From Candidatus Methanomethylophilaceae archaeon (GTDB taxonomy: Bacteria; Cyanobacteriota; Vampirovibrionia; Gastranaerophilales; Gastranaerophilaceae): a DNA stretch of 64,000 nt. Positions 28,334 through 63,669 of the stretch are shown here, piece by piece. Each line of letters begins with the position of its first letter. Position 1 is the stretch's first letter. The position numbers were made by a program, and so were the translations under genes. The notes beneath the pieces were generated by a model. It was not told where the DNA came from, did no database searches, and saw only the letters and a list, made by a program, of their open reading frames with translations. The stretch is taken from the NCBI GenBank assembly GCA_963590665.1, contig CAVAPR010000004.1, positions 10,492 through 74,491 on the forward strand, in the 5' to 3' direction.

Positions 28334-28591
28334 AATAATCTCCTTTTTCTTGTATTCTAGCATAAAATGCCCAAAATCAAATACTTTAAAATTCCTATAA
28401 AAAGAGGATACCAAACCACGAAAATTATTTTATCATTATAAAACGGTTAGGATTAAATAATGAAAAAGTTACTAATAATACTTGGAATTTTGGTTTGCAT
28501 AAATTTGCTGATAATGACAATCAGCAAAGTATTCGCTGCAACTTTGATGTAAGTTAGACTCCAATTTATTTTTATTTTTTAGGATTAGTAA

Positions 28592-30070
28592 CTATATTTC
28601 ACCAAGGCTATCAATTTTGAATGTACAGCCAATTTCTTCTTGTGCAAGTACTGTAATATCATTGATATACATAGATAACAATGTAAAGAATATTTGTCTG
28701 TAATCCATTGGAACAATCAATTTTGGAGAATAAATATTTAATTTTTTAGCTTTCTTTTGGATTTTTAATGCCAATTTTTCAGCAACTTCTCCATCAATTT
28801 TAATCAATGAATCTTCAGTTTCATCACAGCCTAGAACAATATCAGAATATGTTTTTTCTGAAAGTTCAAATGCGCTAATAGTTTCACCATCTTCGTTTGT
28901 ATATTTTCTACAAATTTGTCTTGATAAAGATAACCTAATTTTGTTCAGTATGTCTGCCTTGCTGCCTTCTTCTGCAAAATCATTAATTTTTTCAAAAATG
29001 TAGGTGATATTTTTAATTGAAACTTTTTCTTTTATCAAACTTGTCATAATATATTTCAAATCTGAATATGTTAGCAAATCTGGAATAATATTTTCAATCA
29101 AGAAATCATTTTCCTTTTCAACAACTTCTAAATATTTATCAATATCATCATAATCAAGCAAATCATCAACATACTTTATAGCAACATACTCTAAAGCTTT
29201 TGAAATATATTCAGATGAAGTTATACCTTTTTGCCAAAAATCTTTGGTTTTGTCTTTTTCTACCCAAGTAACCTTTCTTCCTGTAATTTCATCAACAGCA
29301 GAAATTGAGTTCTTAATCTTATGTTCTGTATGAAGTTCATCAGCATAAAACATCAAATATCCTGGGCAAACACCAGCTCTAAAAACTTCCATTCCACGAA
29401 TGCGAATACTAAATTCACAAGAGTTTAGATTTTCATCATCTTTAAATACAACTTTTGGAATAATATAACCAACTTCTTCTGTCAATTTCAATCTAGATTT
29501 AACAGTTTCAGCAATAAGTTCTTCGCCAGAATTATCTCTTTCAGAATCAACAAATCCCAAAAGTTCTTCACTTAAATAAATAGTAAGTTTTTCTTCATGA
29601 AGTTTTGAATACATCAAATCTGGTGAAGTTGCTTTGTTCAAATGAGCTTTCAAATCATCTAATTCTTTCAAACCTGCAGAAATTTTATCGTTCAATTTGT
29701 TTCTTGAAACAGTTGCAGGAGCTTCGTTATCCAATTCAGCTTTGATTTTATTTATCTTATTTTTCTGAGAACGAATTTGAGATTGAATTTCAAGACATTT
29801 TTCATATTCGGTCAATTTTGGAGAAAGCATTTTTTCCATTTGACTTTTAAAATCAGAAATATTGATTATGTCACTATCAGAATTGTTTTCAGGTTTAGAT
29901 GGTCGCATAAAAATACAATTCATCTGAGGATTTTCTTCATCTCCAGATTCGTGCATACTATATAATTCCCAACCATTCATTGACATTTCGTTGAGTAAAT
30001 TTTGTAAATCCTGAGCATTTTCTGTTGAACATGTTTTAATCACATATTCCATTCTATTTTTACCGAACAT
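28592..30070 (-). CDS. soluble protein with FlhA C-terminal (FHIPEP cytoplasmic) domain, N-terminal DUF4177-like domain and coiled coil
   Basis: Residues ~160-490 are colinear with FlhA_C. VGYIIPKVVFKDDENLNSCEFSIRIRGMEVFRAGVCPGYL matches the FlhA pattern G(F/I)V.P.VRIRDN..L.P.EY.IKIKG.EVA.GE. LIKEKVSIKNITYIFEKINDFAEEG matches Bacillus-type LLKEKVSIRNLVTIFETLADYG (recalled from memory). No TM segments. Confidence 0.75.
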   Translation of the reverse strand: MFGKNRMEYVIKTCSTENAQDLQNLLNEMSMNGWELYSMHESGDEENPQMNCIFMRPSKPENNSDSDIINISDFKSQMEKMLSPKLTEYEKCLEIQSQIRSQKNKINKIKAELDNEAPATVSRNKLNDKISAGLKELDDLKAHLNKATSPDLMYSKLHEEKLTIYLSEELLGFVDSERDNSGEELIAETVKSRLKLTEEVGYIIPKVVFKDDENLNSCEFSIRIRGMEVFRAGVCPGYLMFYADELHTEHKIKNSISAVDEITGRKVTWVEKDKTKDFWQKGITSSEYISKALEYVAIKYVDDLLDYDDIDKYLEVVEKENDFLIENIIPDLLTYSDLKYIMTSLIKEKVSIKNITYIFEKINDFAEEGSKADILNKIRLSLSRQICRKYTNEDGETISAFELSEKTYSDIVLGCDETEDSLIKIDGEVAEKLALKIQKKAKKLNIYSPKLIVPMDYRQIFFTLLSMYINDITVLAQEEIGCTFKIDSLGEI

Positions 30071-30075
30071 AAAAT

Positions 30076-30837
30076 CTATCCTTTTATTAATATTTTAATC
30101 GCTTCAATAGCTGTTTTAATCGCTTTTTCCGTATCGTGAACAACGGGATTTTCAAGTCCTTGTTTTTCTCTTTCTTGGTTTGCAACAACCAAAAATACAG
30201 AACCGACTTTAACTTTCAAAAAACTTGCAACAACAAATAATGCCGCAGATTCCATCTCAGAAGCCAAGCAACCTAAACGTTTCCAAGCTTCCCATTTGTT
30301 TTGCAATTCATAAGATACTGGCATTATTTCTGGATTATGTTGACCATAAAAAGCATCCTTGCACTGAACAACCCCTGTATGACAAGGATAACCCAGATTT
30401 TTAGAAGCTTGAACCAAAGCATTTGTTACATCCAAATTTGCAACAGCTGGAAATTCAATTGGAGCATACTCTTTAGAAGTTCCTTCCATTCTAATTGCAC
30501 CAGTTGCAATAACAATATCACCACCCTTGATGTCAACTTGCATTCCACCACAAGTTCCAACACGAATAAATGTTTTAGCTCCGCATTTTACAAGTTCTTC
30601 CATTGCAATTGAAGCAGAAGGACCACCAATACCAGTAGAAGTTACACTAACCTTCACACCATCTAAATAACCAGTATATGTGACAAATTCTCTTCTATCT
30701 GCCACAAGTTGAGGATTATCAAAATACTGTGCAATCTTTTGACATCTTTTGGGGTCACCTGGCAAAATTACATATTCACCAACATCACCAGCTTTAATAC
30801 CAACATGATACTGTGTTCCATCTTCTGAGTATTTCAT
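30076..30837 (-). CDS. udp: uridine phosphorylase
   Basis: 253 aa. [22 protein letters not shown] and EMESAAL blocks match the Udp/PNP-UDP_1 family and are closest to the Udp pattern. Confidence 0.85.
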
Positions 30838-62322: not shown

Positions 62323-63669
62323 TTAAATATCTACTCCTTGCATCATATCAACGAGTTGTTTGATTGTACCTTCCATAGTTACGCTTTCAGATGTTCTTTG
62401 CTGAAGAAAAGCGTTAACTTTTGGCATCATTTGGATTGCAATATCCAGTTTAGGATTAGAGCCTGGTTGGTACATACCTACATCAATTAAATCCTTATTC
62501 TCTCTGTACATTGATAATATAGTTCTCAATTTTCCAGCAGCAGCCTTGTGTTCAGGTGTTGCAATTGCACTCATCAAACGGGAAATACTACCCAAAACAT
62601 CAATTGCTGGATAGTGGTTTGATTCCGCAACCTTTCTTGATAAGAAAATATGACCGTCAACAATACCACGCACAATATCTACGATTGGGTCAGAAATATC
62701 ATCACCTTCCATAAGTACGGTATATAGTGCCGTAATTGAACCCTTTGGGCTGTTTCCTGCTCGTTCAAGAACTTTTTGTAGCCATGAGAAAATTGAAGGT
62801 GGATAACCCTTCATTGTTGGAGGTTCACCTAGTGACAAACCTACTTCACGCCCCGCCATAGCACAACGTGTAACGGTATCAGTCATCAAGAAAACTTTTT
62901 TACCTTGATCTCTAAAGTATTCACATACAGCAGTCGCCGTAAGAAGTGCTTTTTGACGAATTAGTGGCGGTTGGTCACCTGTTGAACAAACAAGAACAGA
63001 TTTTGCCATACCAACTTCGCCCAAAGAATCCTCAACAAATTCTTTAACTTCTCTTCCACGTTCGCCAATTAGTGCAACAACGTTAACATCAGCATCAGAA
63101 TTTCTGGCAATCATACCCAATAAAGTACTTTTACCAACCCCAGAACCTGCAAATAATCCCAAACGCTGTCCACAACCCATAGTCATACAACCATCAATAG
63201 CTCGAACACCTGTTGAAAACTGTTCTGTAATAATTGGTCTTTCAAAAGGTCCTGGTGGAGGTCCTTCGATTGGTCGCCAAAGTGCGTTTGTTGTATCAAG
63301 AGGTTTTCCATCAATCGGATTTCCAAGCGGGTCAATCAATCGCCCTAACAAAAAATCCCCAACAGGAACAGTAATTGGGCGTCTTGTTGAAGTTACCAAA
63401 CTTCCTTGACCAATTCCGCTACCATCTAATAAAAGTGATAACTGGGCAACTTCACCTTTGAAAGCTTGAACTTCTGCGGGTTTTAGTTTGCCATCATAAG
63501 TTTCGATATAACACAAATCGCCAATTTTCAGCCCTGGGAGTTTAACCTCAACAGTCAACCCCAAAAGTTTGGAAACTGTTCCTTTATAAGAATACAACTC
63601 TGTTTGAGCTAATTTTTCTTTGACTTTGTGTTTTAACTCTTCTAAATCACTTTTATCAATATCTTCCAT
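62323..63669 (-). CDS. fliI: flagellum-specific (type III secretion) ATPase FliI
   Basis: Walker A GSGVGKSTLLGMI, Walker B VFLMTDTVTR. Overall F1-beta-like layout with an N-terminal beta-barrel. Confidence 0.9.
   Translation of the reverse strand: MEDIDKSDLEELKHKVKEKLAQTELYSYKGTVSKLLGLTVEVKLPGLKIGDLCYIETYDGKLKPAEVQAFKGEVAQLSLLLDGSGIGQGSLVTSTRRPITVPVGDFLLGRLIDPLGNPIDGKPLDTTNALWRPIEGPPPGPFERPIITEQFSTGVRAIDGCMTMGCGQRLGLFAGSGVGKSTLLGMIARNSDADVNVVALIGERGREVKEFVEDSLGEVGMAKSVLVCSTGDQPPLIRQKALLTATAVCEYFRDQGKKVFLMTDTVTRCAMAGREVGLSLGEPPTMKGYPPSIFSWLQKVLERAGNSPKGSITALYTVLMEGDDISDPIVDIVRGIVDGHIFLSRKVAESNHYPAIDVLGSISRLMSAIATPEHKAAAGKLRTILSMYRENKDLIDVGMYQPGSNPKLDIAIQMMPKVNAFLQQRTSESVTMEGTIKQLVDMMQGVDI

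Follow-up and report, generated by a model that had tools for sequence, protein, structure and literature searches.

The 64,000-nucleotide stretch of DNA analyzed here (the window) encodes, on the reverse strand at positions 28592 to 30070 (stop codon at 28592 to 28594), a soluble 492-aa paralog of FlhA-C, the cytoplasmic domain of the export gate protein FlhA. This protein, termed SHORT below, is real and conserved; it represents an architectural variant of the FlhA family that has not been described, and its gene belongs to the core set of Candidatus Gastranaerophilales, nonphotosynthetic cyanobacteria of the gut. It joins an FlhA-C fold to a new N-terminal module, traces to the clade of the lineage's own FlhA1, is retained across the order, persists after loss of the flagellum, and carries its own pattern of kept and changed residues. 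In every type III secretion machine, substrates are sorted at a central ring formed by FlhA-C or SctV-C, and we know of no characterized free-standing copy of FlhA-C. The reading first made from the sequence alone (the sequence-only reading) was aware of none either, and a search of the literature on stand-alone FlhA-C, FlhA paralogs, and DUF4177 found no description of a SHORT-like protein. SHORT is part of the core genome of a gut lineage that is widespread, and it outlasts flagellum loss together with a filament-less export apparatus; it thereby offers a way into the function of the "partial flagellar gene sets" found in gut Melainabacteria.

Architecture and key residues of SHORT

The reading frame is intact, an AGGA sequence lies about 9 nt 5' of the start codon, and the N-terminus MF.K..xEY is common to the homologs. 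The 492 residues hold no hydrophobic segment, as originally read: the Kyte-Doolittle 19-residue mean peaks at 1.12, and no transmembrane (TM) segment is called. The FlhA-C-like region of ~330 aa that had been recognized by eye was recovered by profile searches. Pfam FHIPEP (PF00771) matches residues 143 to 481 along profile positions 314 to 653 of 657 (E value of 8.6e-48; 163.7 bits versus a cutoff of 29.1), covering the cytoplasmic half of the profile only, and by this coverage and by hydropathy the FHIPEP-loop polytopic membrane gate domain is absent from SHORT. The score against the NCBIfam FlhA equivalog (TIGR01398) is 150.7 bits, far under its cutoff of 772.1, and the best PDB relative by sequence is Bacillus subtilis FlhA-C (3mix; E value of 2.9e-25). 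An AlphaFold model, a single-chain prediction built on 19 family members (pLDDT of 80.7), shows a β-α-β-β module at residues 7 to 57, disorder at residues 61 to 84, a helical hairpin at residues 88 to 148, and then the four subdomains (D1 to D4) of FlhA-C. The structure search suggested by the sequence-only reading gave the same answer: with this model, Foldseek returned only FlhA-C/SctV-C chains, including Salmonella FlhA-C, MxiA, YscV, and CdsV (E values of about 1e-22 to 3e-22; target TM-scores of 0.78 to 0.86).

SHORT resembles known FlhA-C/FlhA-L structures (Salmonella 3A5I and 6CH1-3, B. subtilis 3MIX, and Vibrio 7AMY) in its four-subdomain fold (TM-score of ~0.8), in its linker motif, and in keeping R391 and equivalents of the acceptor residues F400, L401, E508, and L512. 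It differs from them in having the new N-terminal module (N-module) and helical hairpin instead of the FHIPEP membrane gate, in the sequence S-[ED]-E-L-x for GYXLI, in the replacement of F459 and T490, in a relaxed D4, and in its greater divergence. The cytoplasmic domain of SctV (MxiA 4A5P, YscV 7ALW/7QIJ, and CdsV 6WA6) shares the fold with comparable Foldseek scores, but SHORT is phylogenetically flagellar-type and scores only 95.6 bits against the NCBIfam SctV model compared to 150.7 for FlhA. No injectisome genes were seen.

The N-module (residues 7 to 57; 29900 to 30052, reverse strand, as for all parts of the gene) shows the highest conservation within the family. The sequence-only reading had called it DUF4177-like; a distinct β-α-β-β module is indeed present in the model, but its likeness to DUF4177 (PF13783) is weak, at 20 to 22 bits, under the gathering threshold of 25, and the NCBIfam Sp36_fam score is likewise subthreshold (26.8 versus a cutoff of 50). 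No significant fold relative of the N-terminal 150 residues was found in the PDB (best E value of 3.5e-3; TM-score of 0.25). A DUF4177 search of 8 genomes gave only SHORT itself or fragments of the same family, no paralog of the module was found among the window genome's own open reading frames (ORFs), and a search of 5.8 billion proteins gave nothing beyond the SHORT family and its fragments. The module is followed by an acidic, poorly conserved linker (residues 58 to 87; 29810 to 29899) that is predicted to be disordered (pLDDT of <50 at residues 61 to 84; conservation of 0.44) and by the helical hairpin (29627 to 29809), whose second helix aligns with the FlhA1 segment directly after the last TM helix, so that the duplicated piece includes this segment.

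Residues were numbered on Escherichia coli FlhA, which has the same numbering as Salmonella FlhA at every key residue checked, and were counted over 24 SHORT sequences with 17 canonical FlhAs as the comparison. In Salmonella, linker, D1, and D3 residues serve linker-to-neighbor contacts, ring formation, and FliJ binding (PMC5916509), and the function of the C-terminal linker motif has been studied there (PMC5916509 and PMC10965912). SHORT carries this motif, the E351/W354/D356 region of FlhA-L, as SPDLMYSKL (residues 149 to 160; 29591 to 29626), with P150 and M153 at the positions of E. coli E351 and W354; the P is found in 19/24 sequences and the M in 18/24, matching the motif of the lineage's FlhA1. 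The acceptor site is conserved, with R391 in 24/24, Y400 in 23/24, V or I401 in 24/24, D508 in 21/24, and Y or F512 in 24/24 sequences, and these interface residues resemble those of FlhA1. In the window's protein they correspond to R193, Y202 (F400), and I203 (L401), conserved in the first part of D1 (residues 161 to 236; 29363 to 29590), and to D309 and Y313 in D3 (residues 305 to 383; 28922 to 29158). D3, with its motif VSIKxIxYIFEKINDFA, is the best conserved FlhA-C subdomain and ranks with the N-module, while D4 (residues 384 to 492; 28595 to 28921) is the least conserved part.

Two other functional sites are changed. The GYXLI motif (368 to 372) is replaced by S-[ED]-E-L-x (S167-E168-E169-L170-L171 in the window's protein), with G368 being S in 22/24 SHORT sequences versus G in 17/17 canonical FlhAs and position 370 being E in 24/24. 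The chaperone dimple is remodeled: D456 is kept in 22/24 sequences (D260 in D2, residues 237 to 284; 29219 to 29362), but F459 becomes T, S, or N (T263 here) and T490 becomes R, K, S, or E (K291 in the second part of D1, residues 285 to 304; 29159 to 29218), whereas G368, D456, Y/F459, and T490 are all retained in FlhA1 from the same genomes. Judged by these alignments, SHORT retains the linker motif and acceptor site of an FlhA-C and has given up the GYXLI switch and the canonical chaperone dimple. It may be seen as a natural dissection of FlhA-C, in which the surfaces for ring formation and ATPase coupling are kept and those for chaperone docking and switching are changed.

Origin, distribution, and gene neighborhood

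A full-length flhA, whose presence elsewhere in the genome the sequence-only reading had left to be checked, was found on contig 3 of the 2.0-Mb genome in a fliE-fliF-x-fliH-flhA operon, where a 698-aa FlhA follows FliE, FliF, a 334-aa protein, and FliH. This rules out that SHORT is a remnant left by a frameshift or by assembly. That it is a pseudogene or an artifact of flhA is refuted, with no point in its favor and a vanishingly small probability, by this flhA on a different contig and only 27% identity to it, by an intact frame in 398/401 genomes, and by a dN/dS of ~0.04. Fold, solubility, and the separate full-length flhA agree that the stand-alone soluble FlhA-C paralog is genuine.

Among 401 Candidatus Gastranaerophilales genomes with completeness of at least 90%, full-length matches (residues 1 to 492, identity down to 34%) occur in 398, spread over 61 genera and nearly always accompanied by an FlhA of ~700 aa in the same genome. 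An FlhA-type match without SHORT is seen in G344 (1.5 Mb, 98% complete, also lacking flagellin), G462, and G470. In the sister order of the same class, none of 12 genomes (9 genera) has SHORT, each having one FlhA, and the other FlhA-bearing members of our phylum sample gave FlhA-type matches only. Among 1.8 billion representative proteins, ~18 clusters show the full SHORT architecture with identity down to 32%, and beyond them comes a gap and then other FlhA-type proteins. SHORT is under strong purifying selection, with a within-genus dN/dS of 0.035 to 0.06 that is alike in the N-module, the linker plus hairpin, and FlhA-C. Between families, the FlhA-C part of SHORT (SHORT-C) shows 33 to 42% identity, versus 74 to 85% for FlhA1-C in the same genome pairs.

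In an IQ-TREE phylogeny of 73 FlhA-C domains, SHORT is monophyletic (SH-aLRT of 100) on a long stem and is nested with Gastranaerophilales FlhA1 and its derivatives (clade support of 99); this clade excludes both the sister-order FlhA and FlhA2, a second FlhA of Gastranaerophilales. By this nesting, SHORT is an in-lineage duplicate of the flagellar-type FlhA1 that arose inside the FlhA1 clade.

The genes on either side of SHORT were described correctly by the sequence-only reading: a PNP_UDP_1 nucleoside phosphorylase gene (30076 to 30837, reverse strand) ends 5 nt upstream of the SHORT start codon, and a deoB-type gene (phosphopentomutase-type Metalloenzyme) lies downstream. Skp and BamA genes are found farther upstream. 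A weak terminator-like hairpin (28522 to 28538, reverse strand; a consensus match only, in AT-rich DNA) lies between SHORT and the phosphopentomutase gene. The nucleoside-salvage context is thus present here, but it is local to part of one family and not order-wide: deoB adjoins SHORT only in the window's genus, and bamA-skp-(udp)-SHORT is found in several genera of the family. A link to nucleoside salvage was rejected as local, the context of SHORT not being conserved across the order, and the PNP_UDP_1 gene is a neighbor of SHORT and not its functional partner. Flagellar neighbors occur elsewhere. In G044, the order is rplT-SHORT-fliJ (FliJ Pfam E value of 1.4e-17), and the hook-cluster genes that come next lack an orthologue in the window's genome. 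In G049, SHORT and fliI of the FlhA1 system are divergently oriented, and in G058, 11 kb separate SHORT from a flagellar operon. These three cases lend weak support to a link with type III secretion.

The filament-less apparatus and possible roles of SHORT

What machine could a soluble FlhA-C serve in this genome? The order carries two FlhA-bearing systems. Among 71 family genomes with completeness of at least 95%, flagellin is found in 34, and FlhA2-C orthologues occur in exactly the same 34 genomes and in 0/37 flagellin-less ones, indicating that FlhA2 is the gate of the real flagellum. SHORT is kept in 36/37 of the flagellin-less genomes. FlhA1 belongs to a separate filament-less apparatus, which outlasts flagellum loss together with SHORT, and a complete flagellum with FlhA2 coexists with this FlhA1 system in half of the genera. 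In G044, the filament-less apparatus forms one operon of 11 genes (two flgF/G-like genes, flgB, flgC, a gene for a 205-aa protein, fliE, fliF, x, fliH, flhA1, and fliI), and the sister order has a similar filament-less set without SHORT.

In the window's genome, flagellin (PF00669) and FliS are absent by Pfam search with tblastn agreeing, and FlhA2 is absent as well. As E. coli flagellar proteins are insensitive tblastn queries for FliG, FliK, FliJ, and chaperones, absences by tblastn were counted only where Pfam agreed (flagellin and FliS). The axial proteins are limited to FlgB, FlgC, and three of the FlgE/F/G type. The genome keeps the gene row fliE-fliF-x334-fliH-flhA1, a gene for a FliMN_C protein with fliO-fliP-fliQ-fliR after it, flhB with a sigma factor gene beside it, and FliJ-like, FliK-like, and FlgE/F/G-like genes in one row (C3:23138-29042, C45:3193-5458, C5:80640-84576, C7:10160-11938, and C1:139504-141727). 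The FliJ-like gene of this row is at C1:139504-140010. The T3SS ATPase gene fliI was confirmed within the window at 62323 to 63669 (reverse strand). Three gene models in this set deserve mention. The ORF holding FliQ (C5:83301-83789) is 162 aa as called versus 89 aa in E. coli, with the FliQ match near its N-terminus and thus an apparent soluble C-terminal extension; a 226-aa sigma-70 region-4 protein is encoded directly after flhB (C7:11258-11938); and the FliO-like ORF (C5:81950-82609) contains a short run of unknown bases, giving X in the translation, so that its gene model is uncertain.

Hence, the sole candidate partner machine for SHORT in this genome is a filament-less flagellum-derived apparatus. 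The sequence-only reading had considered a decoy, regulator, or adaptor of flagellar export or an unrelated role; a regulator or decoy of filament export is excluded here by the lack of flagellin, FliS, and FlhA2. Most Gastranaerophilales keep only a subset of flagellar genes (PMC4040986), for which a 2026 preprint postulates a secretory role (bioRxiv 10.64898/2026.04.24.720558); neither source mentions a soluble FlhA-C paralog. The apparatus described here resembles these partial sets, as well as the filament-less flagellar basal bodies that endosymbionts such as Buchnera have, in that genes for the export gate, ATPase, MS ring, and rod are kept and flagellin is missing. It differs in being a second system, separate from the flagellum and equipped with an FlhA1 of its own.

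Our favored reading, held tentatively and with somewhat less than even confidence, is that SHORT serves the filament-less FlhA1 export apparatus as an accessory ring or adaptor in the cytoplasm. SHORT is a duplicated, membrane-free cytoplasmic part of FlhA1 (linker plus D1 to D4) capped by a lineage-specific N-module. It would act as an accessory cytoplasmic component of a flagellum-derived type III apparatus, system 1, which comprises FliE, FliF, a reduced FliG-position protein, FliH, FlhA1, FliI, a FliJ-like protein, FliOPQR, FlhB, a FliMN-type protein, and rod proteins and is a candidate partner machine. Because SHORT keeps the interface between the linker and D1/D3, through which Salmonella FlhA forms its nonamer ring and binds FliJ, it probably assembles with itself into a ring like that of FlhA-C, or binds to the FlhA1-C ring or to the ATPase complex of FliH, FliI, and FliJ. 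Because both the GYXLI switch and the pocket for chaperones between D1 and D2 are altered, its client would be other than FliS/FlgN/FliT-type chaperones, and the N-module may supply a further contact. The oligomerization, the binding partners, and any effect on export are inferred.

This role is consistent with the retained fold and linker, the nesting of SHORT with FlhA1, its low dN/dS, its absence from the sister order, the conserved and FlhA1-like interface residues, the presence of SHORT alongside FlhA1 throughout the order and in nearly all flagellin-less family genomes, the presence of system 1 in the window's genome, and the adjacency of fliJ and fliI in G044 and G049. Against it count the missing conserved operon link to a T3SS, with bamA-skp-(udp) preceding SHORT in the window's family, the similar set of the sister order without SHORT, the FlhA of G344 without SHORT, the strong divergence of SHORT-C, and the loss of G368 of GYXLI, F459, and T490. 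Since FlhA1 is present throughout the order, co-occurrence cannot discriminate between readings of SHORT.

The same divergence relative to FlhA1-C and the same losses at the switch and dimple would also fit a neofunctionalized scaffold, in which another process, unrelated to type III export, took over the duplicate as a general platform for binding proteins and nothing but the FlhA-C fold remains, as would an N-module without relatives, a variable and nonflagellar neighborhood, and retention despite flagellum loss. We regard this as unlikely, because what conservation remains falls on the linker, D1, and D3 residues for ring formation and FliJ binding, which are FlhA1-like, all SHORT-bearing genomes but one also have FlhA1, and SHORT adjoins fliJ or fliI in two families.

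Solubility and the kept FliJ-binding and linker-acceptor residues could instead make SHORT a decoy or inhibitor that titrates FliJ, the ATPase complex, or substrates from the FlhA1 gate, throttling or timing export. The lack of GYXLI points the same way, as mutation of this motif in Salmonella blocks ring remodeling (PMC10965912). In Campylobacter jejuni, FlaG competes for FlhA access and antagonizes FliS-flagellin docking on FlhA (PMC11536152), a precedent for a soluble protein modulating what reaches the FlhA-C platform, but FlaG is unrelated in sequence and fold and acts on filament export, and the window's genome has no flagellin or FliS. A decoy role is distinctly improbable in our judgment: a conserved extra N-module, the most conserved part of the protein, is unexpected for a pure decoy, the canonical chaperone pocket is not kept, so that SHORT could not mimic FlhA for FliS/FlgN-type clients, and its neighborhood shows no regulatory linkage.

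A more far-reaching form of the ring or adaptor role, speculative and less probable still, is that the FlhA1 machine is an unrecognized, nonrotating, filament-less T3SS used for secretion in the gut, with lineage-specific parts rebuilding its cytoplasmic face and SHORT as a second soluble ring or cargo shuttle. A SHORT nonamer might then lie in a stack with the FlhA1-C ring on one side and the FliI/FliJ ATPase on the other, or SHORT might be a free shuttle, its remodeled pocket selecting nonflagellar cargo. If true, a stacked ring or cargo shuttle would add an architectural element new to T3SSs.

Other FlhA-C architectures

FlhA-C had been taken to exist only fused to the gate domain, a generalization that fails in this lineage, where several FlhA-C paralog architectures other than the canonical one were found. 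The 334-aa protein encoded between fliF and fliH (C3:25204-26208 of the window's genome), in the position of FliG, lacks a Pfam match to FliG. Over its N-terminal ~165 aa, it is 30 to 49% identical to the N-termini of proteins of 570 to 780 aa that continue with predicted TM segments (1 to 5 called), a full FlhA linker, and FlhA-C (P0157, P0159, P0161, P0165, P0167, P0171, P0176, P0177, P0180, P0183, P0190, P0195, P0204, P0211, and P0234). These fusions of the FliG-position domain, TM segments, and FlhA-C represent a third FlhA-C architecture, and they hint that the FliG-position domain works with FlhA-C. In the IQ-TREE phylogeny, they fall in the FlhA1/SHORT clade, with 12/15 in the subclade that holds SHORT.

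A metagenome contig from ENA encodes a protein of 895 aa (P0150; L135:32-2719) in which FlhA-C occurs twice in tandem, with HEAT-like repeats after each copy; no TM domain is present in the called gene, which starts 31 nt from the contig end, leaving its N-terminus uncertain. Sporadic extra FlhA-C paralogs of the order were also seen in L127 (G040:C60, 471 aa), L129 (G040:C2, 458 aa), and L130 (G033:C10, ~610 aa). One of them is soluble with a different N-terminus, one is tethered by TM helices, and L130 has an internal stop and is apparently disrupted.
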